Under the pieces are notes generated by a model. It did not search any database. It was not told the DNA's origin and saw nothing but the letters and a program-made list of their open reading frames with translations. This document shows positions 3,973 to 22,697 of a stretch of 64,000 nt of DNA, one piece after another (position 1 is the stretch's first letter; each line of letters opens with the position of its first letter). Location of the stretch: NCBI GenBank assembly GCA_944380975.1, contig CALWJK010000002.1, forward strand, positions 37,766-101,765, given 5' to 3'. A program made the translations under genes and the position numbers. Origin of the DNA: an uncultured Agathobaculum sp. (GTDB lineage: Bacteria > Bacillota > Clostridia > Oscillospirales > Butyricicoccaceae).

Positions 3973-4989
3973 ATGATACGTGTTACCACAAACGGTACGC
4001 TGCGTACCTATCGTAGCCACTTGGCGCGGGCTACGCTCAATCAATATCAGTCGATGAATACGGTGCTGACACGACGGCGTTTTACGTCTTATGCGGAATC
4101 GCCGTCTTTGGCGACGCAGTCTTTCCGTCTGCATTCGTCATACGCCCGCAATACAGCTCAACAGAGTATGAGCGAGGAAATGATCAGCAAGTATGAGGCC
4201 GCAGGCAGCAGCTTGCAGAAGTTACAGGAGCAGTATCTGGATGCGCTGGATGCGGCGGAGCAGGGACAGGATGATAGCAAGGCAGGCGCGCGCCAGCAGT
4301 TGGGCGAGACGCTCAAGGGCATTGCAGAGGGCATGGTACAGACGCTCAATGCGCAGTACGGCGATAAATTTATCTTCGCAGGCACGGATGGTGAGAATGC
4401 TCCGTTTGAGTTGAAAGACGGAAAGCTGCTGTTCCGCGGTTTGGATGTAAATGATCCCGCTAATGAGGAAGCCTTTAAGGAAATGGCAAACGAGGCTGCA
4501 TATGTCGACATTGGTCTGGGCATGCAGTTGGACGAGAATGAGCAGGTGGTGCCGTCGACGGCATTCAATTCCGCTATCTCCGGTATTGGCTTGCTGGGAT
4601 ATGGTACGAATGGGGATGGTGTACCAAACAACATGATCAGCGCGATCGCGGAACTGGGCGAGATTTACTCTCGTGCAGATTCTGAGACAGGTGCTTTGAA
4701 TCCTGCCGATTCGGAGCGCGCAGAAGCGCTGTTCGGAAATTTACAGGAGTCCAATGCAGATTTCCGTGCTGAGTGGACTAAGCTGGACACCAAGGCGCAG
4801 TTCCTCAAATCCAATGATACACGCCTGACCTCAACCGGCGATACGTTGCAGACGCAGTATGAGGGCTTGGATCGCGTGGATCTGGCCGACGCACTGACAA
4901 CATTTGCATATGCACAGTATAGTTACAATGCGGCACTTCGAGTGGGAAATGATATTTTGTCGCAATCCTTCATTGACTATATGAGCTAA
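3973..4989 (+). CDS. flgL: Flagellar hook-associated protein 3 FlgL
   Basis: Flagellin-like N terminus (MIRVTTNG...) and C terminus (...AYAQYSYNAALRVGNDILSQSFIDYM). Follows flgK. Confidence 0.9.
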   Translation: MIRVTTNGTLRTYRSHLARATLNQYQSMNTVLTRRRFTSYAESPSLATQSFRLHSSYARNTAQQSMSEEMISKYEAAGSSLQKLQEQYLDALDAAEQGQDDSKAGARQQLGETLKGIAEGMVQTLNAQYGDKFIFAGTDGENAPFELKDGKLLFRGLDVNDPANEEAFKEMANEAAYVDIGLGMQLDENEQVVPSTAFNSAISGIGLLGYGTNGDGVPNNMISAIAELGEIYSRADSETGALNPADSERAEALFGNLQESNADFRAEWTKLDTKAQFLKSNDTRLTSTGDTLQTQYEGLDRVDLADALTTFAYAQYSYNAALRVGNDILSQSFIDYMS

Positions 4990-5029
4990 CAAAAAACTTC
5001 GTAAATAAAAGAGAAAGAGTGATGGATGG

Positions 5030-5632
5030 ATGGAGCGACTGATCGAAATAAAAACGGTTCCGATAGAACTGGAGATGAAGGTAAACCATGCACGGCTGGA
5101 CTATAAGCGTTCGACGGTTGATTTGGAGATTTCCAGAAATCAGGGAGGCTTGCAGATTCGAAGCAAGCCGATCAAAGTGAATATCGACACGTTCGAGGCG
5201 CGCAATTCGGTGTCGCCGACTGCGATGCGGAGCATCGAACAGGCGGCGCAGCGCGGACAGCAAAAGGTTTACGACACCACTGCAACTTATGCTCGTCGGG
5301 GTGATTTACTCTTGGAGGCAAAGATCGGAGAACAGCTGATTTCTCAGTTTGCGATGGAATCGCAGCAGGTCAATACCGATTTTGCGATGAAGTGGCTGCC
5401 CACGACCGGACCGGATATTTCTTGGGATGGCGGGGAACTCAATATTCGGTATGAAATGGATAAGCTTAATTTCGACTGGCGGATGGATCAAGGAAACGTA
5501 GAATTCATTCCGGGCAACATTGAGTTTACTGTTACACAGCAGCCGGATGTTATCATCAAATATATTGGCGGGCCGGTCTACGTTCCACCGTCTGCAGATC
5601 CGGATTATGTGCCGTTAGATGAACAGGCTTAA
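5030..5632 (+). CDS. YviE-like conserved protein of unknown function (I recall this slot being classed as DUF6470)
   Basis: 200-aa ORF in the flgL-fliW slot that yviE occupies in B. subtilis. No catalytic motif recognised. Confidence 0.6.
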   Translation: MERLIEIKTVPIELEMKVNHARLDYKRSTVDLEISRNQGGLQIRSKPIKVNIDTFEARNSVSPTAMRSIEQAAQRGQQKVYDTTATYARRGDLLLEAKIGEQLISQFAMESQQVNTDFAMKWLPTTGPDISWDGGELNIRYEMDKLNFDWRMDQGNVEFIPGNIEFTVTQQPDVIIKYIGGPVYVPPSADPDYVPLDEQA

Positions 5633-5645
5633 TAAGGAGCAAAAT

Positions 5646-6092
5646 ATGAAAATACAAACCAAATATTTTGGTGAGTTAAATATTGATGACAGCACAACGC
5701 TCCGGTTTTCGGATGGCTTGTTTGGATTTGAACAGGAAAAGGAATTTGTCCTCCTCTCTTTTTCGGAAGAGGAGGACTTCCTGCTCTGTTTACAAAGCGT
5801 AGTAACACCGTTTTTAGCGTTTACGCTACTCAATCCGTTCATGGTAATGCCGGAATACCGCCCTGTGCTGCCGCAGGAAGAATTGCAGCGGCTGGGGGTC
5901 GATCAAAGTGAGGACTTGTGCTATTATGTATTGTGCAGGGTGGAAAACCCTGTTTCCAAAAGTACGGTCAATTTGCGATGCCCGGTTGTGCTGAACGATC
6001 AGACGCGGCAGGCGCGGCAGGTGATTCTGGACGAGTATGAGATGCGATGCCCACTGTCATCGCTGAGAAAGAAGGATGACGGAGCATGCTGA
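5646..6092 (+). CDS. fliW: Flagellar assembly factor FliW (CsrA antagonist)
   Basis: MKIQTKYFGEL...GLFGFEQEKEF is a typical FliW N terminus. AAGGAG lies 7 nt before ATG 5646. The 3' end overlaps the csrA start. Confidence 0.9.
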   Translation: MKIQTKYFGELNIDDSTTLRFSDGLFGFEQEKEFVLLSFSEEEDFLLCLQSVVTPFLAFTLLNPFMVMPEYRPVLPQEELQRLGVDQSEDLCYYVLCRVENPVSKSTVNLRCPVVLNDQTRQARQVILDEYEMRCPLSSLRKKDDGAC

Positions 6093-6319
6093 TCCTGCAA
6101 CGAAAAGAAGGCCAGTCTCTTACGATTGACGATCGGATCGTGGTCACGGTTCAGGAAATCGGGCAGGGACGCGTGCGCTTGTCGGTGGATGCGCCGCGTG
6201 ATATTGCGGTGCTTCGGACGGAGCTGGTGGAGGCACAGCGGGAGAACCGTTCGGCCGCGCAGGAGAAGGAATCTCCGATGCAGCTGCTGCAGATGCTCCG
6301 CAAGGAAAACGAAAAATAA
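6086..6319 (+). CDS. csrA: Carbon storage regulator CsrA
   Basis: MLILQRKEGQSLTIDDRIVVTVQEIGQGRVRLSVDAPRDIAVLRTEL is a near-canonical CsrA sequence. Confidence 0.95.
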   Translation: MLILQRKEGQSLTIDDRIVVTVQEIGQGRVRLSVDAPRDIAVLRTELVEAQRENRSAAQEKESPMQLLQMLRKENEK

Positions 6320-6345
6320 TGCCGGAGTTTCGGCATGAATAGAAA

Positions 6346-6381
6346 CAAAAAATCCTGCGTCGGTTGACGCAGGATTTTTTT
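6346..6381. terminator. Bidirectional terminator between csrA and the convergent ComFB-domain gene
   Basis: 10-bp stem ATCCTGCGTC (6352-6361) / GACGCAGGAT (6366-6375) with loop GGTT. It is flanked by an A-run on the 5' side and a T-run on the 3' side. Confidence 0.8.
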
Positions 6382-6385
6382 GTAC

Positions 6386-7333
6386 TCAATGATGTGGATG
6401 CTCGTTGATGATGACGCAAGCACGCATCATTTGCACAGATAGTTCTTTTTCATAGCGGGCTGCATATACGCTCATATAAGCGGCGCGCTTGGATTTTTCC
6501 AGCACTACATATTTAGAGGGCAGATTGGTCAGCGCGAGTGCTTTCATATCGGCAATGCAGCGCTGGCATTGGCAATGCAGCATATTGGTGGTATAATACA
6601 CCGAAGTTTCCTCCGCCAATTCTTGCAGAACATTGGTATATTCTACGTCTTGTTCCCCAGTAGGGGTATAAATCTGCTCGGCAGGTGCTTCCGGCTGGGG
6701 CATTTTTACGGTAGGCTGTGCGGGTGCAGGAGGTTCGTCAGCAGAGGAAATAGCCTCAGGTGCGGGGGCTTGCGGAATCACTGGAGTCGGATCGGTTTCC
6801 GGTTCTGGGATAGATGCCGTCATGGCTTCTGACGCAGTGACCGGGCTCTCTTCGACCTCTTGCATCACAGTATCCTCTGCGACCGGCGTTTGGGATTCCG
6901 CAGCTGCGGGTGATTCGGACGGCTGCGCAGGTGCTTCCGCCTCAATCAGCGCCTGCAATAACCCTGATTTGATATCGTCGGAAACCTGTTGCTCCTTTTC
7001 CCGGACCGTTTGTACAATCGGGACTACGGGCTGTGGTGTAGGGACAGGGGCTGCCTGCGGCTGTTCTGCCGTAGGGAGTTCCTCGGAAACCACTGCAGGG
7101 GACTCCTGCGTTGGTTCGGCAGATACCGGGGCGGCTGACGCTGCTTTGGATGTTTTTTTGGGTTTGTTTGTGCTGGTGCGTTTTTTCTCCTTGGGGGGCT
7201 CTTCTGGTGTAGGCTGTGGTTCTACGGGAGCCGCCGGTGCAGCCGGCTGTTCTGGCTCGGCTGGCGTGGCTTCGCTGGGGGTTGTAATCAGATTCAACAC
7301 GCGTGCGGTTTTGTTACTGCGTTTTGATGCCAT
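6386..7333 (-). CDS. ComFB-domain protein with basic N-terminal peptide and ~200-aa P/A/E-rich disordered region
   Basis: The C-terminal ~90 aa carry a ComFB-type Cys cluster, HCQCQRCIADMKALALTNLPSKYVV. Residues ~20-224 are low-complexity Pro/Ala/Glu. The N terminus is MASKRSNKTARVLNLI. The gene starts 21 nt downstream of the ParA-like gene. Confidence 0.7.
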   Translation of the reverse strand: MASKRSNKTARVLNLITTPSEATPAEPEQPAAPAAPVEPQPTPEEPPKEKKRTSTNKPKKTSKAASAAPVSAEPTQESPAVVSEELPTAEQPQAAPVPTPQPVVPIVQTVREKEQQVSDDIKSGLLQALIEAEAPAQPSESPAAAESQTPVAEDTVMQEVEESPVTASEAMTASIPEPETDPTPVIPQAPAPEAISSADEPPAPAQPTVKMPQPEAPAEQIYTPTGEQDVEYTNVLQELAEETSVYYTTNMLHCQCQRCIADMKALALTNLPSKYVVLEKSKRAAYMSVYAARYEKELSVQMMRACVIINEHPHH

Positions 7334-7354
7334 TTTTAATTTTCCTTTCGTGGT

Positions 7355-8116
7355 TTAGGATTTATCAGCGAGGATTTCGTCTACAAGGGCAACAAAATCC
7401 ATAGCGGGCTTACAAGTGGGGGAATAAGAAACGATACTTTCCCCGTGTGCAGGCGCTTCTGCCACCATGACGCTTTGGCGGATTTTGGCCTCAAAAACTT
7501 TGGTGTCAAGCTGCTGGGCAATTTGCTGGGAGAGTTCCAGCACGTCGCGGTTGAGGTTCAAACGCGCGTTGAATTTGTTCAGCAGGATGCCGATGACCTT
7601 GAGGCTGGGGTTGTAATATTGCCGGACAGTTTCGATGGTCTCCTTGATCTGTGTTACACCCAGCAGGCTGAGGATTTCGGGGGCCATCGGGATGATGAGC
7701 TTGTCTGCGGCAACATATGCGTTAACGGTCAGCAAGTTGAGCGCCGGAGGCGTGTCGATGATGATATAGTCGTAGCGGTCAGAAACCAGAGAAAGCTCGG
7801 TTTTGAGCATATATTCGCGTCCAGGTTTGTTGCATTCCAGCTCTACACCGGAGAGCAGGATGTTGGAGGCGAGGAGGTCGCCATAGGTCATCGGGCAAAT
7901 GACCTGATCGATGGGAAGCTGTTTTTTGAATACTTCATACATGGTATGCACATTCTCAATGTCCACACCGAGGCTGAAACCAAGATTGCCCTGAGGGTCG
8001 AGATCGACGCCAAGAACTTTATATCCGCGCTCGGATAGCGACGCGATGAGAGCAGATGCTGTGGTCGTTTTTCCGACGCCGCCTTTCTGATTGGTGATGG
8101 CAATGATTTCCGCCAT
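7355..8116 (-). CDS. Orphan Soj/ParA-family ATPase (deviant Walker A)
   Basis: IAITNQKGGVGKTTTA (KGGxxGKT deviant Walker A) and VLGVDLDPQGN (ParA-type motif). ATG 8116 lies 8 nt after AGGAAG; the track start at 8125 is a GTG. No ParB gene is adjacent. Confidence 0.85.
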   Translation of the reverse strand: MAEIIAITNQKGGVGKTTTASALIASLSERGYKVLGVDLDPQGNLGFSLGVDIENVHTMYEVFKKQLPIDQVICPMTYGDLLASNILLSGVELECNKPGREYMLKTELSLVSDRYDYIIIDTPPALNLLTVNAYVAADKLIIPMAPEILSLLGVTQIKETIETVRQYYNPSLKVIGILLNKFNARLNLNRDVLELSQQIAQQLDTKVFEAKIRQSVMVAEAPAHGESIVSYSPTCKPAMDFVALVDEILADKS

Positions 8117-8165
8117 AGAAGACACTTCCTTATCTGAAAAAAATCTGAATATTCTCTTATGTTTA

Positions 8166-8193
8166 GTATACTACATGTCGAAATAAAAACATA
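8166..8193 (+). promoter_or_regulatory. Weak candidate sigma-28-type promoter of the fliD operon
   Basis: TTAT (8166-8169)-N16-GTCGAAAT (8186-8193). It has one core mismatch (CGAA instead of CGAT) and a spacing one nt longer than the other sites. Confidence 0.3.
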
Positions 8194-13330: not shown

Positions 13331-15226
13331 ATGCAACTAAAAAACATGAAAATCAATCAAAGACTAATCTTGGGATTTGCAATTCCCGTTATTTTGGCGG
13401 TTCTTTTGCTTGTAATTGCGCTGACGAACTCGCTTTCGATGCGCAACCAGTATGAAGAACTGTTGAATCATGAAGTACAGTTGGAACTTCAGATTATGAA
13501 TTGCCGTGTGCAAACGAATACGGCAGCGCGTTTTGCGCGTGATATGGTACTCGATACCGAGAAGACAAACTTCAACAGCAACCAGTCCCAGCTGAATGAT
13601 GCGTTGGATGCATTAACGGAATCGCAGAATTATGTTGCGGAGAATTGTACGCTGGGCGATGGTAAGGAGGACAGTTATCTGGCCGCTGTGAGCGCATGGG
13701 AAAATATCATTCCCAAAATTCTCAGCGCAGTGGAAGCGAACGACTTTGAACAAGCGCAGACAATTCTGGTCAACGAATGCACACCGGCACTCAATGAACT
13801 GCGTGACAATGCAGTGGAACTCAATCAGGCAATTGAAGATAGTATCACAGAGGTACGGACGGCACAGGAACAGTCGGTTACCCGGATGCTGATTCTCATG
13901 ATTGTATTGCTGGTAGTATTTGTGATTTTGGTGATCATGTTTGCAACACGGCTGATCCGCTCCATTTTGATTCCGCTGAACGAAACCAAAATGGCGCTGC
14001 AGGATATGCGCGATGGTGATATGAGCCATCAGATTACATATGAATCGAGAGATGAATTTGGTGATATGGCAGACGCTCTGCGGGGAAGCCAGCAAATGTT
14101 GAGCTCTGCTCTTGATGAAATTACCCGCATCACGACTGCTATGGTAGATGGCGACTTCAGCGTTAATTGTGAAGTTGAACTGCCTGGCGCATTCCATACG
14201 ATCACGGAGTCTCTGGCGCAGCTGACCAGCCAGATGCGTAAGATGATCGCCAATGTCAAGGCTTCTGTGGATCAGGTTGCTTCCGGTGCGGCTCAGGTTT
14301 CTACCGGCGCGCAGTCTCTGGCACAGGGTGCGACGGAACAGGCCAGTGCAGTTGAGCAGCTTTCGGCCACCATCAACGATATTGCAACTGCTGCGCGTAA
14401 AAATACCGAGGCGGCGCAGTCGGCCAAGGAAAATGCGGATGCCGCTGGTTCGCAGAATGAGGAAAGCCAGCAGCAGATGACACAGATGATTAACGCGATG
14501 AACGAAATCACGTCTACATCGCAGGAAATCAGCAAGATCATTAAGACAATCGAAGATATTGCGTTCCAGACCAATATTCTTGCGCTCAATGCGGCTGTGG
14601 AAGCAGCGCGTGCTGGTTCTGCGGGCAAGGGCTTTGCAGTTGTTGCGGATGAGGTTCGGAATCTTGCATCGAAATCTGCAGAGGCGGCTAAGAATACCAC
14701 TACTTTGATTGAAAATTCGATCAAGGCGGTTGAGAATGGATCCAATATTGCACATGCGGCGGCAGAATCTATTACTTCCAGCACTGATCTGACGAGCAAA
14801 GCGGTTGAAAAGATCACGCAGATCGCAGCGGCAGCAGAGCGTGAGTCCGAGTCGATTGAGCAGATCACGCAGGGCATTGATCAGATTGCAACGGTTGTTC
14901 AGACTAACTCTGCTACCAGCGAGGAATCTGCGGCGGCCAGCCAGGAGCTTTCCTCGCAGGCACATATGCTGCACCAGATCTTCTCTGCTTTCCGTGTTGG
15001 CAAGGAGGATGTTGCTCCGGCAGCGTTGCCGGCTTCAACAGCAGCATCGGCGTCTTCGTTTGACTATCAAGCTCCGGCAGCGGCACCGGCCTTTGAAAGC
15101 AGCTCTTCCACCTCTGTAAACAGCGGCAGCTTTCATGCAGGAGGTTCTTCCCCCGTATCGGGGGATAGGTTTCCAGAAAGCCATCACACCTCTTTCTCCA
15201 GCTACGACGATTCCGGTAAGTACTAA
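13331..15226 (+). CDS. Methyl-accepting chemotaxis protein (4-helix-type sensor, HAMP) with long S/A-rich C-terminal tail
   Basis: Two TM segments. Conserved signalling hairpin [39 protein letters not shown]. An ~80-aa low-complexity tail precedes the stop at 15224. Confidence 0.93.
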
Positions 15227-15248
15227 GAGATATGAGGTTACGCCAGAC

Positions 15249-15629
15249 TTGGAAACGGGCAATGATTTGATCGATTCCGAGCACCGTATGTTGTTTGATG
15301 CGATCAATGACCTGATGGACGCATGTAATTCAGGTCATGGTCGTGATAAAATCGGTGAAACCGCAGACTTCCTTGCAGATTATGTCGATCAACATTTCGC
15401 GGATGAGGAAGATTTGCAGCGGAAGAATCATTATCCCTACTACGAGGCGCATCACAATTTCCATTTGAATTACAAGCAGAAAATTCGCGAATTGGCGAAC
15501 GAGATTCGTACGGAAGGTCCCAATGTGAAAAACTTGGGTGAAGTCAATTCGCAGGCGAGTGTGCTGATCAACCATATTCGCCATGAAGATAAGCGCTTGG
15601 CGGAGTTTATTAAAAACAATGCTGAGTGA
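15249..15629 (+). CDS. Hemerythrin-like di-iron protein (start codon uncertain)
   Basis: Complete ligand pattern: DSEH, HFADE (HxxxE), HHNFH (HxxxH), HIRHED (HxxxxD). The domain begins about 5 nt after the MCP stop, in the +1 frame. In-frame starts are only ATG 15135 (inside the MCP gene, no SD) and TTG 15249 (GAGG 11 nt upstream). Confidence 0.75.
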   Translation: METGNDLIDSEHRMLFDAINDLMDACNSGHGRDKIGETADFLADYVDQHFADEEDLQRKNHYPYYEAHHNFHLNYKQKIRELANEIRTEGPNVKNLGEVNSQASVLINHIRHEDKRLAEFIKNNAE

Positions 15630-16883: not shown

Positions 16884-16910
16884 TTATTTATTTTTGCGCG
16901 CAACCGATGA
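16884..16910 (+). promoter_or_regulatory. Candidate sigma-28 promoter of flagellin gene
   Basis: TTAT (16884-16887)-N15-ACCGATGA (16903-16910). The GCTTAT-to-CCGAT spacing (22 nt) is identical to the flgM site. Confidence 0.5.
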
Positions 16911-17017
16911 TATGAATGTAAGTTAACCCCCGGCAAATGTGCAGGGGAAATGCATTTCCAGCTTTCAAACGGGGTGTAACTGTCTCGTCTGAAATAGAAG
17001 AACATTCACCAAATGGA

Positions 17018-17060
17018 CCGCAAGCAAAAGGATTTGCTGCGGACGGATTCTGTAAAGGAG
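17018..17060 (+). promoter_or_regulatory. Putative CsrA binding sites in flagellin leader
   Basis: Hairpin 17018-17042: 10 bp with a 1-nt bulge, presenting AGGA (17029-17032) as the tetraloop. A second GGA lies in the SD AAAGGAG (17054-17060). Confidence 0.55.
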
Positions 17061-17069
17061 TAGTGAATC

Positions 17070-18620
17070 ATGAGAATCCAACATAACATTATGGCAATGA
17101 ATGCCTACCGCAATTATTCCAACAACACTTCGGCTCTGTCTAAGAACCTCGAGAAGCTGTCTTCCGGTTACAAGATCAACCGTGCTGGCGACGACGCGGC
17201 TGGTCTGGCGATTTCTGAGAAGATGCGTGCCCAGATCACCGGTCTGGAAACCGCTCAGAAGAACGCGAAGGACGGTATCTCCCTCGTTCAGACCGCTGAA
17301 GGCGCGCTGACTGAAGTTCATGACATGCTCAACCGTATGGTCGAGCTGGCTAACCAGTCTGCAAACGGCACCTATGACAACGAGACCGACCGTGCGAACC
17401 TCCAGAAGGAAGTTGAGCAGCTGAAGAGCGAAATCGACCGTATTGCTGATTCCGCAAACTTCAACGGCATCAAGCTGCTGGACGGCTCGCTGAGCGAGAG
17501 CGGCAACAAGAGCATTGAGATCTCCGGCATTGCGACAACCTTTGCGCAAGGCAGCGCAAGCATTGCGTCGACTTCGGCGTCGTTGGCTGCATCTACTGCG
17601 ATTGGTGCTGGTTTTGCATCTGGTGACACGATTGAGCTTACCCTTGCTGTTGACAACGGCAAGAGCTACAGCATCAAGCTGACGCGCGATGGCAATACGC
17701 TGGTTGACGAGAATGGCAAGTCTTATAAGATTTCCTCCACGGCAAAGGCTTCGGAGGTCAATGCGGCGATCGCCGGCGCGATCAAGGATGCAACCGGTGG
17801 CGCATTTACTGCAACCGGTGGTATTGGCTCTAAGTTGACTATTACCAGCACAGAGACCGGTGCAAACGCCCCGTCGGTGACCGGTATTACCGGTTCTGTT
17901 GATGGCACGGCAGCATCAGTCACTACGACTGTAAATGCGCCGGTGGCGGATAAGATTAACATTGCATCTAATGCTATCACGGCAGCCGGCACTAATGCTA
18001 CGGCTTCGGCTGTAACGGTCTTTACCATCAATGGACAGAAGTTTGCGCTGGCTGCTACCGATGCTGCACTGGATCATGTACAGAAGCTGGCAGGCGATGA
18101 TGTCAAGGTTGTTATCGGTGCTAACATTGGTGAAGCTGCGCAGCAGTTGGCAGATGCTACCGGTCTGAATATTGAGAAGCAGGTCGGCAATAATGGTATT
18201 TCGATCAGCACTGCCAGCGGCAAGGCGCTGACCCTGCAGATCGGCGATACCTCTGATTCCTACAACAAGCTGCAGGTATCCGTTCAGGATATGCACACTG
18301 GTTCGCTCGGCATCGCGGGCATCGACATTGGCACGCAGGACGGCGCTGCTGCGGCAGTTGACCTCATCAAGAATGCAATCAATATCGTTTCTGACGTACG
18401 TGGTACGCTTGGTGCTACCCAGAACCGTCTGGACCACACCATCAACAACCTGTCCGTCATGACTGAGAACATTCAGGATGCTGAGTCCACCATCCGCGAC
18501 ACCGACGTTGCAGACGAGATGATGGCTTACACCAAGAACAACATTCTGGTTCAGTCTGCGCAGGCTATGCTGGCACAGGCCAATCAGGTTCCGCAGGGCG
18601 TTCTCCAGCTCCTGCAGTAA
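17070..18620 (+). CDS. fliC: Flagellin (516 aa) with S/T/A-rich central variable domain
   Basis: Conserved N terminus [15 protein letters not shown]...[18 protein letters not shown]. Conserved C terminus [15 protein letters not shown]...[23 protein letters not shown]. Confidence 0.97.
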
Positions 18621-18653
18621 GCCAAACCAACAGTTTAGTTCAACCATACAGAG

Positions 18654-18682
18654 CGGGGCGGGCATTTGCCCGTCCCGTTTTT
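18654..18682 (+). terminator. Terminator hairpin after flagellin gene
   Basis: 10-bp G/C-rich stem 18654-18663 / 18668-18677 (one G-U pair) with a 4-nt loop, then only TTTTT. The next ORF region starts 6 nt later. Confidence 0.7.
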
Positions 18683-18708
18683 CTGTAATGGATAAAGGAG
18701 AGTCCGGA

Positions 18709-20646
18709 ATGAGCAGTAATACAATTGATCTTGCTCGTCGTTTAGCAGAGTTAGGACAGAAAGAGGATGCGCAGCAGGCTTATCTTATGGTTCTGCAGGA
18801 GGTTTCTGAGAAACAGCCGGAATTGGAGATGGAAGCTGCCAGCTTTATCTTTTTTTCAGAGGGCGATTATCAAATCGCCTACACAACATTTGTTTCTTTA
18901 TATAATCGTGGTTTCTATCAGGCTGAACTGATGGATTTGATGACACAGGCGTTTTATCTGCCGAATGTTGCCGAGCAGATGAAGCGATATGAACAGAATT
19001 GTGAGCGGTTAGGACGTTATCCTTATCTGTTTCGTAAGGATTTTTTGGCATTTGGTGATCTGCCGATTAAGTTTTTTCCCTTCAATGATGAAGGATATAT
19101 CCCGTATTATAAAGCGGAAAATCGGTTTGGTAGCTATGTGAATTTTAACGATCCGGTGATCGACCGCTATTTCTTTAATGATTTGGAAAATCCCATCCTT
19201 GCAAAGGATGTTTATTCACAATATCAGTTAGAGTACTTGACCGATAACGTACGTAAAAGTGAGTGGGTCGGTCGGGAAAATCACATATATTTGCATTACA
19301 CAGATTGGGCAGTATTTTGTGCCTATTTGCAATGCCTTTCTATCTATAATTTGTTGCGAGACAGCAAACAGGTGTTTTTGATTGGAAATGAAGTGTCACA
19401 GTATCCGATTGATTTCAAAGAGCGTTTTGGAATTGATTATAGTAAATATCCTGTCAAGCCGGTCAGTATCCGAGAGGTAAACCGCCTGATTTGGCACACG
19501 CAGCTTGCAGCACATAACGGCGGCGACTTCTTTAATGAAATTTTTTATGGCCATCCGAATTTGCTGTCATTTGAGTCGATTTTGTTTGATACAGTTTTGT
19601 CTCAGATTAAAGAATATCGCGAGCAGTTGAAGAAAAAGCGTTGTAAATCAAAGCTTGGTATTCAACTTTCTCAGCTTCAACATCCAACAGACAAGGATTT
19701 TTTGGTTGCGTTGTTTTTAGAAACCGCACCGGATTCTGTTCATACATGCCGGATTGCACCTGCACTTTTTTTCCAACCCCATTTCCATAATGTGATATGC
19801 GAAATGCGTGTTGATGACAAAACAGGAAAAACATTATTGTATTCTGAGCAGTTTGATGAACTTTCTAAGTCCTCTATTTTCCAGCATTTTAAGTATATCA
19901 AGACCTTTACTCCAATGAGGCGTATTACGACAAGTTATGCGGCAACCATTCGTTTTATGAGAAACTCTAATTTTCAGAGTAGTGACGCTGTTACCCCTGA
20001 TGTAATGGCTGAAAGGTTGCTGAATCGGAGTTTTATGGTTGATCGCTATAATCGTTTGTATCGAGATAGCGTGCTTGTCCGTTTTGAGGATGGTAAGTTA
20101 AATCCTAAGGCAACATTTACTGCATTAGCTGAGTTTTTGGATATTCCTTATACGGAAAGTATGACATATTGCTCTAGTAAAGATGGGATTAATCCTGAAT
20201 CATTAAAAGGTAATGTGCGTGGCTTTGATACAGCTACTGTTTATCGAACCTATGATGAATTCGCAAATGATGACGAGCGTGCCTTTATTGAGTATTTCAT
20301 GCGGGATGCTTATGAATATTATGGATATGATTTTCAGTATTATAAGGGTGAACCTGTCGATGAGCAATGGGTGACTAATAAAATTAAAGGATTTACTTGC
20401 ATTAATGAAGTCATAGAAAAATCGTGGGAAGATAATTTGTTGTCAAAGAAGGATGAAGAACAGCAATATGAGGACATTGTTGCGCAGGCAAAGCGAGTGA
20501 CGGAAAATTATGATGAGAATCGTATGAATATTGCGCATCTTCTGATGAGAGGCTTGCGCTTTGTTAACAAGCAAGGCCAGCCGCTGCACATGATGATGCC
20601 GCTTCGTCTTGACCCGGATCTTCTGGAGCAGCCGCTCTATCACTAA
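18709..20646 (+). CDS. Two-part protein: TPR-like helical N-terminal half plus sulfotransferase-like C-terminal half
   Basis: C-terminal half: G-rich loop plus FYGHPNLL (in the 5'-PSB position), TPMRRITTSYAA (resembling the 3'-PB R-x-P...S motif), and VLVRFEDGKLNPKATFTALAEFLDIPY (resembling the YEDLxxxPxxxxxxxxxFLGL tail of sulfotransferases). ATG 18709 lies 8 nt after AAAGGAG. Confidence 0.45.
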   Translation: MSSNTIDLARRLAELGQKEDAQQAYLMVLQEVSEKQPELEMEAASFIFFSEGDYQIAYTTFVSLYNRGFYQAELMDLMTQAFYLPNVAEQMKRYEQNCERLGRYPYLFRKDFLAFGDLPIKFFPFNDEGYIPYYKAENRFGSYVNFNDPVIDRYFFNDLENPILAKDVYSQYQLEYLTDNVRKSEWVGRENHIYLHYTDWAVFCAYLQCLSIYNLLRDSKQVFLIGNEVSQYPIDFKERFGIDYSKYPVKPVSIREVNRLIWHTQLAAHNGGDFFNEIFYGHPNLLSFESILFDTVLSQIKEYREQLKKKRCKSKLGIQLSQLQHPTDKDFLVALFLETAPDSVHTCRIAPALFFQPHFHNVICEMRVDDKTGKTLLYSEQFDELSKSSIFQHFKYIKTFTPMRRITTSYAATIRFMRNSNFQSSDAVTPDVMAERLLNRSFMVDRYNRLYRDSVLVRFEDGKLNPKATFTALAEFLDIPYTESMTYCSSKDGINPESLKGNVRGFDTATVYRTYDEFANDDERAFIEYFMRDAYEYYGYDFQYYKGEPVDEQWVTNKIKGFTCINEVIEKSWEDNLLSKKDEEQQYEDIVAQAKRVTENYDENRMNIAHLLMRGLRFVNKQGQPLHMMMPLRLDPDLLEQPLYH

Positions 20647-20660
20647 AGAGGGAGAACGCC

Positions 20661-21800
20661 ATGGATAACAAAGGAACGGTTTATTTTTTTACGGGTCTTT
20701 CTGGTGCAGGAAAGACCACGATTGGCGGTTTGTTTTATCAGCGCCTGAAAAAGACCAAGCCCAATGCGGTTTATCTGGATGGAGACGAGATGCGCCCTGC
20801 ATTTGGTGAGGATATTGGCTATACGCACGAGGAGCGGCTGCGCTGGGCAGGACGAATTTTTCGTGTCTGTCAATTGCTTTCTAATCAGGGAATTGATGTG
20901 GTTTGCTGTAGTATTGCGATGTTTGCAACAATACGGCAGTGGAACAGGGAAAATATCGCCAACTACAAGGAAATCTATATCAAGGTTAAAAAGGAGACAC
21001 TCCTGTCCCGCAATCAGAAAGGCTTATATACGGCAGGACATAATGTGGTAGGTGTGGATTTGCCGTTTGACGAGCCGAAAAATCCGGATCTAATCGTGCA
21101 AAATGATGGCGATGAGAGCCCGATAGAGGTTGTTAAGCGGATTGAAAAGATCTTGTATCCGTGTATTGTGCAGAATCCGATTGACAATACGGCATATTGG
21201 AATCAATACTATCAAAATCGTATTTGTTCTACAGAGCCGTCGCCGTTTGCACGTTATGTCGCAACTTTGGTAGATCCAGGGAAAACACTGGTGGATTTGG
21301 GCTGTGGAAATGGCAGAGATTCTTTGTTTTTTGCTGATATTGGTTTGAATGTGTTGGCGATTGATCTTTCGGATACAGCGATACAGCAGCAGGATATTTC
21401 TGAAAAGAGCAATATCAGATTCTTATGCGATGACTTCGTCAATTGCGAGGAACATCAACCGGAAACGTATGATTATGCTTACAGTAGGTTTACTATTCAT
21501 TCCATCAACGTCAATCAGGAGCAGCTTTTGCTGCAAACCATGTACCGGTCGTTGAAAAAAGGTGGTAAATTCTTTATTGAAGTTCGCAGTGTAAAAGATC
21601 CTCTCTATGGAAGAGGAGAAGCGCTGGAAAGAAATGCATTTTATTACGATAATCATTATCGGCGTTTTATCGTGATGGATGAGCTGATAGACCGCATGAA
21701 AGAACAAGGGTTTTTAATTGAGTATGCCGAAGAAAAAACCGGTTTTGCGCCATATGGGAATGACGATCCTCCGATTATCCGAGTGGTTGCAAAAAAGTAG
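20661..21800 (+). CDS. Fusion of APS-kinase-like (CysC-family) domain and class I SAM-dependent methyltransferase
   Basis: The N-terminal domain aligns by eye with CysC: VYFFTGLSGAGKTTIG, YLDGDEMR, DIGYTHEER, QKGLY. The C-terminal domain has SAM motif I, LVDLGCGNGRDSLFFA, plus KKGGKFFIEV. Confidence 0.7.
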   Translation: MDNKGTVYFFTGLSGAGKTTIGGLFYQRLKKTKPNAVYLDGDEMRPAFGEDIGYTHEERLRWAGRIFRVCQLLSNQGIDVVCCSIAMFATIRQWNRENIANYKEIYIKVKKETLLSRNQKGLYTAGHNVVGVDLPFDEPKNPDLIVQNDGDESPIEVVKRIEKILYPCIVQNPIDNTAYWNQYYQNRICSTEPSPFARYVATLVDPGKTLVDLGCGNGRDSLFFADIGLNVLAIDLSDTAIQQQDISEKSNIRFLCDDFVNCEEHQPETYDYAYSRFTIHSINVNQEQLLLQTMYRSLKKGGKFFIEVRSVKDPLYGRGEALERNAFYYDNHYRRFIVMDELIDRMKEQGFLIEYAEEKTGFAPYGNDDPPIIRVVAKK

Positions 21801-21811
21801 AGGGTTAGGCA

Positions 21812-22642
21812 ATGAAAAATAGGATGATGGTTGATCTGCATACCCATACTTCGGCTTCCGATGGACAGTATAGCCCGTCTCAGGTAGTAGAAATGGCAAA
21901 ACGGGCAGGAATTACTTGTCTAGCCATTACAGACCATGACACGATATCCGGATTGCAGGAGGCGCAAGCAGCAGGCAAGGAATACGGTATATCGGTTGTG
22001 CGGGGAATCGAATTGGGTGCAAAGGAAGACCGGCATTTGCATATTGTTGGACTGGGCTTTTGCGAGAACGCCACAGAATTGCAGCTGCTTTGCAATAAGC
22101 TGCGGCAAAGTAGAGATGAACGCAAGTATCGTATCGTGGATTTCCTACGGGAAAAAGGAATAGAGGTTTCGCTGGATGAGGTCACCGAGTTGGCCGGCGG
22201 AGAGGTGATTGCGCGACCGCATTTTGCACAGGTGATGTTACGGCACGGCTATGTATCTTCGATACGTGAGGCATTTGACCGCTATTTGGACACTGATGAG
22301 TATCAGCGTATCGAGCGTTTCAAAGCGTCTGCGGCAGAGTGTATTGAGGTGATTCATCAAGGTGGCGGAAAGGCAGTGCTCGCGCATCCGTATCAGCTTG
22401 GAATGCCGGATGATGCTTTGGAGCAGATGATCGCTCGGCTTAAAGCGGAAGGTTTGGACGGAATTGAATGCTATTATCCGCAGCATACACCAGAAATGAC
22501 CCAGCGCTATCTGGAGTTCGCGCAAAAGTATGCGTTATATGTCTCAGGCGGCAGTGATTTTCATGGGGAAGCAGTACATCCAGACAATTTGTTAAAGCCA
22601 ATTCCGCTGGATATATCTTGGCTGTTAGGGTTTGCTACATAA
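21812..22642 (+). CDS. PHP-domain phosphoesterase (TrpH/YciV-like; candidate 3',5'-bisphosphate nucleotidase)
   Basis: VDLHTHTSASDG, AITDHDT, LAHP and GGSDFHG are PHP metal ligands. The gene starts 11 nt after the upstream gene. Confidence 0.75.
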   Translation: MKNRMMVDLHTHTSASDGQYSPSQVVEMAKRAGITCLAITDHDTISGLQEAQAAGKEYGISVVRGIELGAKEDRHLHIVGLGFCENATELQLLCNKLRQSRDERKYRIVDFLREKGIEVSLDEVTELAGGEVIARPHFAQVMLRHGYVSSIREAFDRYLDTDEYQRIERFKASAAECIEVIHQGGGKAVLAHPYQLGMPDDALEQMIARLKAEGLDGIECYYPQHTPEMTQRYLEFAQKYALYVSGGSDFHGEAVHPDNLLKPIPLDISWLLGFAT

Positions 22643-22662: not shown

Positions 22663-22697
22663 AAACCGGTAAGTGCAGAAGCACTTACCGGTTTTTT
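22663..22697 (+). terminator. Strong terminator ending the post-flagellin cassette
   Basis: 14-bp perfect stem AAACCGGTAAGTGC / GCACTTACCGGTTT with loop AGAA, followed by a T-run. Confidence 0.85.

Follow-up and report, generated by a model that had tools for sequence, protein, structure and literature searches.

The described flagellin modification islands include the Maf/glycosyltransferase systems, the TPR-containing FlmG of Caulobacter, the type A/B loci of C. difficile, and lysine methylation by FliB; to our knowledge, the modifications described for flagellin are either glycans or lysine methylation. A different kind of activated-group transfer serves the O-methyl-phosphoramidate (MeOPN) modification of C. 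jejuni. Here, CDP-phosphoramidate 3'-phosphate is the product of Cj1415–1418 and probably serves Cj1421/1422 as the donor in MeOPN transfer (PMC11800397, PMC3907429). Cj1415 is a cytidine diphosphoramidate 3'-kinase of the adenosine 5'-phosphosulfate (APS) kinase family—its product being a look-alike of 3'-phosphoadenosine 5'-phosphosulfate (PAPS) (PMC11800397)—and the MeOPN transferases carry a C-terminal DUF2972 (PMC5808241). In this work, we analyze a cassette of three genes directly behind the flagellin gene fliC in a 64-kb stretch of DNA (the window), which corresponds to the core cluster of flagellar genes in an Oscillospirales bacterium akin to Agathobaculum. The cassette encodes a presumed group transferase with a predicted sulfotransferase fold, an APS-kinase-family kinase fused to a methyltransferase, and a PHP phosphoesterase.

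On balance, we favor the reading that these three genes are the type A variant of a modular Oscillospirales flagellin-modification system, which operates by donor activation, transfer, and clean-up. In the proposed mechanism, the kinase domain encoded by gene 2 would phosphorylate the 3'-hydroxyl of a nucleoside 5'-diphospho-X and yield a PAPS-like donor. The protein encoded by gene 1 (G1) would dock on cytoplasmic, unexported flagellin by its TPR-like and alpha/beta N-terminal part, and its sulfotransferase-fold domain would pass the terminal sulfuryl- or phosphoryl-type group to hydroxyls—most likely of Ser/Thr—of the surface-exposed flagellin central domain. The PHP enzyme of gene 3 would turn the released nucleoside 3',5'-bisphosphate into the 5'-monophosphate, and the fused TehB-like methyltransferase might methylate the head group, either on the donor or after transfer. 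An earlier note on this DNA had already read the genes as donor synthesis, transfer, and by-product removal, a logic that fits every cassette variant described below. With flagellin as its target, this logic is well supported by gene content and context; flagellin as the acceptor, a 3'-phospho-nucleotide as the donor, and the role of the PHP enzyme are what we infer.

The presumed acceptor is encoded by fliC (17070–18620, + strand; 516 aa; Flagellin_N 1.2e-44, Flagellin_C 1.2e-26). Its central variable region (aa 146–425, nt 17505–18344) is indeed S/T-rich, with 22.5% Ser+Thr and 1.1% Tyr, which makes Ser/Thr likelier acceptors than Tyr. Behind it on the same strand lie gene 1 (18709–20646; 645 aa), gene 2 (20661–21800), and gene 3 (21812–22642), separated by gaps of 14 and 11 nt. 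The open reading frame of gene 1 holds a further ATG at 18688, which directly abuts the U-run of the preceding hairpin; ATG 18709 is the likely start because an AAGGAG ribosome-binding site lies 6–7 nt upstream and homologues begin at the same point. Two hairpins bound the cassette: one with a U-run in the interval between fliC and gene 1 (18647–18687; dG -30 kcal/mol, z -7.8), where gene 1 starts only about 24 nt after the U-run, and an intrinsic terminator at the cassette end with a 14-bp perfect stem followed by U6 (22663–22697; dG -25.7 kcal/mol, z -6.7). Neither was picked up by a simple consensus terminator scan, and both were established by folding instead—for each of them, 0 of 200 shuffles folded equally well. 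The earlier picture of three tightly packed genes between terminators hence stands. The upstream hairpin is an intrinsic terminator or attenuator, and since it separates fliC from gene 1, the cassette is probably expressed by read-through at a level below that of flagellin. Genes 1 and 2 (18709–21800) are compositionally foreign: their GC contents are 0.40 and 0.43, compared with 0.49 in gene 3 and in the window as a whole and 0.54 in fliC. Such a composition fits with horizontal exchange. Domain searches found no glycosyltransferase, Maf, or sugar-nucleotide gene in the cassette or within ~8 kb, in agreement with the earlier note.

The coupling of these genes to flagellin is apparent from comparative genomics. 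A scan of species-representative genomes with a 12-sequence G1 query alignment gave 218 loci, of which the best 80—all from Oscillospirales—were examined; the closest genome locus is that of Agathobaculum sp. LCP25S3_E8, with 89% identity of the gene 1 protein. In 62/65 loci, no more than 700 nt separate the 3' end of a flagellin gene from the G1 gene downstream of it, and with a limit of 1.5 kb this holds for 65/65 (median gap 118 nt). Downstream, an APS-kinase-family gene follows within 300 nt in 71/74 loci (median gap 17 nt), and a PHP gene is found on the same strand within 10 kb in 33/50 loci, where it is usually the last gene of the cassette. Synteny of flagellin, transferase, and kinase is thus near-obligate, and the claim that the genes form a functional unit coupled to flagellin is supported. 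The genes flanking the cassette vary by species, as between Flavonifractor plautii and the window. Several genomes contain two to four flagellin–G1–kinase modules, each behind its own flagellin and with differing cassette types (L023/L027/L042/L067; L036/L062/L073; L039/L044/L074; L046/L055/L069; L053/L064; L006/L014). Evtepia MAG033 combines an ATP-sulfurylase (Sat) type with a MeOPN-like type, and Lawsonibacter carries fusion, IspD, and phosphonate types.

These cassettes, classified by tblastn markers, are modular, and their types are defined by the genes that stand between the kinase and the PHP gene. Type A, to which the window, F. plautii, and Agathobaculum belong, bears the kinase-fused methyltransferase and no other extra gene; the fusion occurs in 28/81 loci. 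Type C (4 loci) holds a short-chain dehydrogenase/reductase (SDR), a DUF2284 protein, and a nucleotidyltransferase. Type D (3 loci) combines a methyltransferase, a pyruvate phosphate dikinase (PPDK)-like protein (NF004508/PRK05849, 922 bits), a Peptidase_C26 protein whose best match is gamma-glutamyl-CDP-amidate hydrolase, and an NTP transferase—a set that mirrors the architecture of Cj1418/1417/1416. A cytidylyltransferase–phosphoenolpyruvate (PEP) mutase (TIGR02320, 393 bits) and a phosphonopyruvate decarboxylase (Ppd) mark type E (14 loci and L017), in some loci joined by a class-V aminotransferase or a radical SAM protein. Type F (6 loci) carries Sat, a Na/H-exchanger-type membrane protein, and a pyruvate-kinase-like protein; type G (9 loci) an IspD-type cytidylyltransferase and an epimerase/dehydratase; type H (2 loci) a cytidylyltransferase–oxidoreductase fusion, a LicD protein, and an aminotransferase; and type I (1 locus) a nucleotidyltransferase–choline-kinase fusion, a second nucleotidyltransferase, and a transporter. 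The metagenomic locus L092 has only TagD (TIGR01518, 210 bits against a cut-off of 165) and the PHP gene. Since L092 and types D and E encode no other transferase, G1 is the only candidate user of the cassette product. In type H, the LicD-family phosphotransferase (L050:13804–14811) is a second candidate transferase, which would use an unphosphorylated CDP-X. A distinct type with kinase and PHP only had been considered for L017, Agathobaculum desmolans ATCC 43058, and was rejected: its phosphonate genes—a radical SAM gene, two cytidylyltransferase-type genes (one of them a cytidylyltransferase–PEP mutase fusion), and Ppd—sit at 4178–8172, upstream of the flagellin gene and not downstream of the kinase.

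How such cassettes are exchanged can be appreciated from two strains of F. plautii (L001:8042–10379 and L006:1–2338). Their G1 proteins are 95% identical and precede different cassettes: kinase-methyltransferase and PHP (type A) in one and kinase with SDR, DUF2284, and nucleotidyltransferase (type C) in the other, which indicates that cassettes are swapped behind a nearly constant transferase. The nucleotide homology of the pair (91%) stops about 420 nt into the kinase gene and marks a recombination breakpoint.

Distant members of the G1 family (26–29% identity) occur in non-flagellar loci. Locus L084 holds three G1-family paralogues beside a MeOPN-like gene set, with McrBC, type IV secretion system, and ClpP genes adjacent and no flagellin. 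One of the three is an 836-aa protein (L084:12001–14511) that consists of a G1-family transferase fused to a PRK05541-type kinase; the two other paralogues precede its gene, and methyltransferase, PPDK-like, and Peptidase_C26 genes come after it. In the glycan locus L086, a G1 member stands beside a canonical kinase and Sat, together with GT2 and dTDP-sugar genes, and in L087 a G1 member adjoins a PHP gene. The triad of transferase, kinase, and—in part—PHP hence predates its attachment to flagellin. A recurrent PAPS module was also observed, which comprises a canonical APS kinase, Sat, and a small Mor-family protein (L086:8447–10285, L088/L089:7490–11736, L090:272–2101). After the Mor gene, L088/L089 encode a Na/H-exchanger-type membrane protein and a pyruvate-kinase-like protein, so that kinase, Sat, exchanger, and pyruvate-kinase-like genes correspond to the content of the type F flagellin cassette. 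This module is found as well in Lachnospiraceae glycan or teichoic-type loci without flagellin.

All motifs quoted in the earlier note are present, namely FYGHPNLL, TPMRRITTSYAA, and VLVRFEDGKLNPKATFTALAEFLDIPY in gene 1 and FFTGLSGAGKTT, LDGDEMR, DIGYTHEER, KGLY, and LVDLGCGNGRD in gene 2. The G1 family itself consists of 'hypothetical proteins' and is of modest size (426 clusters at 50% identity). In Pfam, G1 matches Sulfotransfer_3 only, and this below threshold (17.7 bits against a cut-off of 27), and single-sequence searches of the PDB and NCBIfam returned no match. By score, G1 belongs to no curated sulfotransferase family, and with the single-sequence Pfam score sub-threshold, it could be placed among the sulfotransferases only by way of a family profile and a structure model. 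A profile of 48 G1 members matched the CurM sulfotransferase (2.9e-8) and TPST1 (5e-7) in the PDB. Among these 48 diverse members, Sulfotransfer_3 is weakly matched by 22; in the comparison with Sulfotransfer_1/_3, the best E values were 1e-6 and 2e-7, with weak matches in 22 and 14 members. An AlphaFold2 (AF2) model based on a 62-sequence alignment reached a pLDDT of 92.6 and a pTM of 0.91—a shallower alignment of 19 close homologues had reached a pLDDT of 42.6 only. In a Foldseek search of the PDB with this model, the top 16 matches are all sulfotransferases (probability 1.00, TMt 0.50–0.57), the best of them tyrosylprotein sulfotransferases (TPST2 at 8e-6, TPST1 with TMt 0.57). Model, Foldseek, and family profile agree and support a sulfotransferase alpha/beta fold for the C-terminal half, closest to the protein-modifying TPST1/2, as the earlier note had surmised from motifs.

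The model divides G1 into three parts: a TPR-like helical part (aa 1–103), an alpha/beta domain (~120–250), and the sulfotransferase-fold domain (~255–560). The notion of a TPR-like N-terminal half thus applies to the first 103 residues and not to residues ~120–250, which form a separate domain with the invariant residues R182, S184, N191, H192, and K220. For the entire N-terminal module of ~250 aa, including this domain, Foldseek gave no PDB match. The sulfotransferase-fold domain is characterized by the motifs WHTQLxxHNGGDFFNE, RIxPxxFxQPHF, TPMRRxTTS, and RFEDGKLNPKATF. Down to 24% identity, the polar residues R182, S184, N191, H192, R348, H358, R404, E460, D461, and K463 are invariant. Of these, the nearly invariant R404 aligns with the 'RD...S' motif of TPST/CurM and by this alignment takes the position of the 3'-phosphate-binding Arg; T407, T408, and S409 are conserved beside it.

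The kinase domain of gene 2 (20661–21170; presumed 3'-kinase) clearly belongs to the APS-kinase family (PF01583, 1.1e-26; solved APS kinases in the PDB at 2.8e-21 to 1e-11). The earlier note had called it a CysC-like kinase fused to a methyltransferase; family domain and fusion are confirmed, whereas a canonical APS kinase it is not: it fails the apsK equivalog TIGR00455 (98.9 bits against 138.7) and passes NF004041/PRK05541 (156.3 bits against a cut-off of 127). Kinases linked to Sat—including that of the non-flagellar L086—read D-R-E-A-N-I-K-R and N-I-S-P, match apsK models best, and fail NF004041 with 103–106 bits. All other cassette kinases pass it at 145–181 bits and read ERLRWAGRIFRV and CSIAMF; the window kinase reads E-R-L-R-W-A-G-R and C-S-I-A-M-F. 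Here, a Trp occupies the position of the Asn in the Sat-linked ENI(K/R)R, an Asn which we take to have a sulfate-binding role in APS kinases. The PRK05541-type kinases adjoin cytidylyltransferase pathways (MeOPN-like, phosphonate, TagD, and IspD), those of the MeOPN-like loci L026, L045, and L084 being 50–54% identical to the window kinase. The closest unfused relative of the latter is the kinase of L017 (77% identity). In 59/70 cases, the nearest-neighbor kinase shares the cassette type, compared with ~15 expected by chance and 41/70 for G1. Hence, two kinase subfamilies track the cassette chemistry. The alternative that the earlier note had named—a Cj1415-like kinase that serves a non-sulfate group—turns out to be the better-supported reading, given the NF004041 match and the cytidylyltransferase neighbors that kinases of this subfamily have in other loci.

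The C-terminal domain of gene 2 (21171–21800) is a class I S-adenosylmethionine (SAM) methyltransferase of TehB/TPMT-like type, with the Rossmann-type motif I LVDLGCGNGRD. It matches Methyltransf_25/23/11 at ~1e-13, all above their cut-offs, and TehB at 1e-11; its best NCBIfam models are MduS and TehB, all under their cut-offs, and its best PDB matches are phosphoethanolamine N-methyltransferases (1e-14). The fused methyltransferase (21171–21797) also weakly matches the methyltransferase portion of the NCBIfam ArsM/DUF2284 selenoprotein fusion model, and a free-standing DUF2284 protein in type C cassettes (e.g., L033:4568–5107) echoes this methyltransferase–DUF2284 association. The product of gene 3 carries a PHP domain (PF02811, 6.8e-16) with HxH...D metal motifs. 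As stated earlier, it is of the TrpH/YciV type: it matches the PDB entries 9etk (2e-43), 2yb1—the 3',5'-nucleotide bisphosphate phosphatase Cv1693—over residues 7–253 (6.6e-35), and 7ug9, the 5'–3' exoribonuclease YciV/RNase AM of E. coli (2.5e-33). It scores below both NCBIfam equivalogs (NF041577, 193.3 bits against 400; NF047791 for RNase RNM, 198.5 against 375); its presumed role is that of a nucleoside 3',5'-bisphosphate phosphatase.

For the head group that type A cassettes might attach, sulfate from PAPS appears rather unlikely, since the window kinase falls in the subfamily not linked to Sat, and cassettes with Sat come with a canonical kinase of their own. A phosphoryl-type group from a common nucleotide, methylated to something O-methyl-phosphate-like—an amide-less analogue of MeOPN—is likelier than sulfate and the candidate that we tentatively prefer, though we rate it short of an even chance. 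To a head group whose genes lie at another genomic location we assign the remaining probability. As type A loci hold neither a nucleotidyltransferase nor Sat, the kinase substrate would be either a common metabolite or made elsewhere. A phosphonate is one possible head group from another locus, at which two weak observations hint: the closely related L017 kinase lies beside phosphonate genes, and the methyltransferase matches phosphoethanolamine N-methyltransferases. More generally, Oscillospirales might use a 'PAPS logic' beyond sulfate, in which a PRK05541-type kinase would convert CDP-X to 3'-phospho-CDP-X and G1 would put X-phosphoryl or sulfate on flagellin. This generalization is an almost even proposition, with doubt slightly prevailing. 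Under it, X may be glycerol, a ribitol-like alditol, an aminoethylphosphonate-type phosphonate, phosphoramidate, or a choline-like group, and in type A a methylated phosphate. Swapped cassettes and coexisting modules would then give the filament a combinatorial, non-glycan surface chemistry, also in Flavonifractor, Agathobaculum, Lawsonibacter, and Oscillibacter species that are abundant in the human gut.

Several observations weigh against the modification system that we propose. A strong terminator separates fliC from gene 1. The 5'-phosphosulfate-binding (5'-PSB) loop (K/R)-S-G-T-T reads H269-N-G-G-D273 in G1, with the Gly alone conserved, and nucleotide binding by G1 hence rests on the fold. 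The core motifs of G1 are identical across all cassette types, Sat-linked ones included, and the donor-specific residues sought in G1 by cassette type were not found, so that the link between cassette chemistry and G1 rests on context. The F. plautii pair, in which all but the same G1 serves a type A and a type C cassette, points in this direction too. Neither the window nor any of the 28 type A loci encodes a nucleotidyltransferase, and about a third of the cassettes (17/50) lack the PHP gene. Two further points leave room for sulfate: the loss of the Asn is not fully diagnostic, as by alignment the 'probable' APS kinase 2yvu lacks it too, and APS may be supplied by a Sat at another genomic site. 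The claim of PAPS sulfation in the earlier note amounts to this latter scenario—gene 2 as a true APS kinase fed by a distant Sat, G1 O-sulfating flagellin, the PHP enzyme clearing 3',5'-ADP (pAp), and an independent methyl mark. It draws on the nearness of the G1 fold to protein tyrosine sulfotransferases, the APS_kinase domain and homology of gene 2 to solved APS kinases, the homology of gene 3 to the pAp phosphatase family, and six sibling cassettes with Sat and kinase behind flagellin and a G1 of the same core motifs. From these six, G1-type enzymes are very probably able to use PAPS, and judging by gene content, true flagellin sulfation is likely in other species with ATP-sulfurylase cassettes. 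For the window cassette, however, the claim does not hold up well: its kinase fails the apsK equivalog and is of the PRK05541 subfamily, which is never paired with Sat in these loci; Sat cassettes carry a canonical kinase instead; and the window encodes neither Sat nor CysDN, nor do the flanks of the 28 type A loci. As a weaker point, the best 120 relatives of the cassette Sat include none from Flavonifractor or Agathobaculum. We therefore regard flagellin sulfation by the window cassette as unlikely.

A target other than the flagellin protein—a flagellin-attached glycan, another flagellar or surface polymer, or a small molecule, with adjacency to fliC reflecting co-regulation only—would suit the distant G1 members in the glycan-type L086 and the flagellin-less MeOPN-like L084, the transfer of MeOPN onto sugars in C. 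jejuni, and the extra genes of types G and H, including the LicD-family transferase. We consider it improbable, since the transferase stands directly behind flagellin in 65/65 loci of the flagellin-linked clade, in genomes with two to four flagellin genes each of these is followed by a G1 and a cassette of its own, the window cassette and its surroundings to ~8 kb hold no glycosyltransferase, and minimal cassettes such as L092 hold no glycan-building gene. Least credible, and by a wide measure doubtful, is that the genes are unrelated neighbors, with G1 a TPR-type flagellin chaperone or regulator bearing a dead sulfotransferase-like domain, gene 2 part of sulfur/nucleotide metabolism, and gene 3 a housekeeping RNase AM/YciV. 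The altered 5'-PSB loop and the missing PHP genes could be read in this way, as could the equal scores of the PHP enzyme on RNase RNM and bisphosphate phosphatase models, both under the cut-offs. Yet, the invariance of polar G1 residues argues for catalysis, a transferase–kinase fusion protein exists in L084, gaps are 11–17 nt with the kinase kept in 71/74 loci, and the PHP gene brackets the variable genes at the 3' end in many cassette types. The donor-activation system acting on flagellin is hence the reading that we retain.

The cassette is set among flagellar genes. Apart from flagellin, the window encodes FlgK, FliD, FliF, FliI, FliK, rod and hook proteins, FliY/N, FlhA, methyl-accepting chemotaxis proteins, CheX, and CheY. 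The long 5' leader of fliC (16890–17069) contains a hairpin, CCGCAAGCAAA-AGGA-TTTGCTGCGG, at about 17018–17045 with a GGA in its loop, and a second GGA falls in the Shine-Dalgarno sequence AAAGGAG; this arrangement is similar to the pair of CsrA-binding sites in the leader of B. subtilis hag. Near 16905, the box CCGATGAT is a candidate SigD-type -10 element by its sequence. A hemerythrin-domain gene adjoins the flagellin–cassette block in varying orientation (window 15135–15629; L001:5431–5829 in F. plautii; and, separately, L007:13389–13784). Lastly, a TnpB/IS605-like open reading frame of ~392 aa (cluster c5), so labeled by eye from its N-terminal sequence, recurs near flagellin–G1 modules in 14 loci, e.g., L055:6427–7605.

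If true, the proposed system would extend the PAPS/MeOPN-donor principle to a family of CDP-X 3'-phosphates and give a function to the 'hypothetical' G1 family. It would also account for a large and so far unrecognised source of flagellar surface diversity among common commensals of the human gut. In Crohn's disease, the flagellins of gut Clostridia rank as dominant antigens, and they are TLR5 ligands. With cultured strains available for Flavonifractor plautii and Agathobaculum, the proposal lends itself to direct tests. The literature searched holds no description of flagellin sulfation—PAPS-dependent sulfation, as the earlier note had remarked, included—nor of a flagellin-linked APS-kinase/sulfotransferase cassette, of the G1 protein family, or of a direct sulfuryl or phosphoryl decoration of flagellin driven by nucleotide 3'-phosphates.

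Compared with the MeOPN pathway of C. jejuni, methyltransferases (there Cj1419/1420) and large transferases (there paralogues of ~600 aa) are a common trait, and L026, L045, and L084 hold an entire Cj1416–1418-like set beside G1-family genes. Unlike that pathway, the window cassette has no homologues of Cj1416–1418, includes a PHP clean-up enzyme, and presumably modifies a protein—flagellin—instead of a capsule sugar. The transferases differ as well, as far as published domain architectures allow for a comparison: Cj1421/1422 bear DUF2972 (PF11186), which matched none of the 48 G1 members at E<=0.1 and none of 8 distant members at E<=10, those in MeOPN-like loci included. Campylobacter members of the G1 family, sought among clusters with AT-rich representatives, were not among them—all were Bacillota metagenome proteins.

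With PAPS sulfotransferase systems, the cassette has the logic of a donor kinase and pAp removal in common, and its type F siblings possess Sat and a canonical kinase. The C-terminal half of G1 shares its fold with TPST1/2, the sulfotransferase (ST) domains of CurM and OLS, and Stf9, along with a C-terminal RFEDL-x-x-P...FL-x-P motif and the position of the 3'-phosphate-binding Arg. In contrast to these enzymes, G1 scores under the Pfam gathering thresholds, reads HNGGD for (K/R)SGTT, and carries an extra N-terminal module of ~250 aa; in contrast to PAPS supply by Sat/CysC, the window kinase is non-canonical and Sat is not encoded in the window. Gene 3 aligns end to end with Cv1693 and YciV (TrpH, RNase AM) in the entries 2yb1 and 7ug9, though it remains under both equivalog cut-offs and sits inside a modification cassette rather than standalone.

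With flagellin modification islands, finally, the system shares modifier genes directly behind flagellin, an N-terminal TPR-like module joined to a catalytic domain, a content that differs by strain or species, and several flagellin-plus-modifier modules per genome. It departs from them by the lack of glycosyltransferase, Maf, and nonulosonic-acid genes, by the predicted sulfotransferase fold of the catalytic domain of G1, and by predicted 3'-phospho-nucleotide donors in place of nucleotide sugars. Hence, we class activated-group transfer of the PAPS/MeOPN type as the known part of this system; the novelty lies in the family of proteins, in the acceptor, and in donors that can be exchanged.

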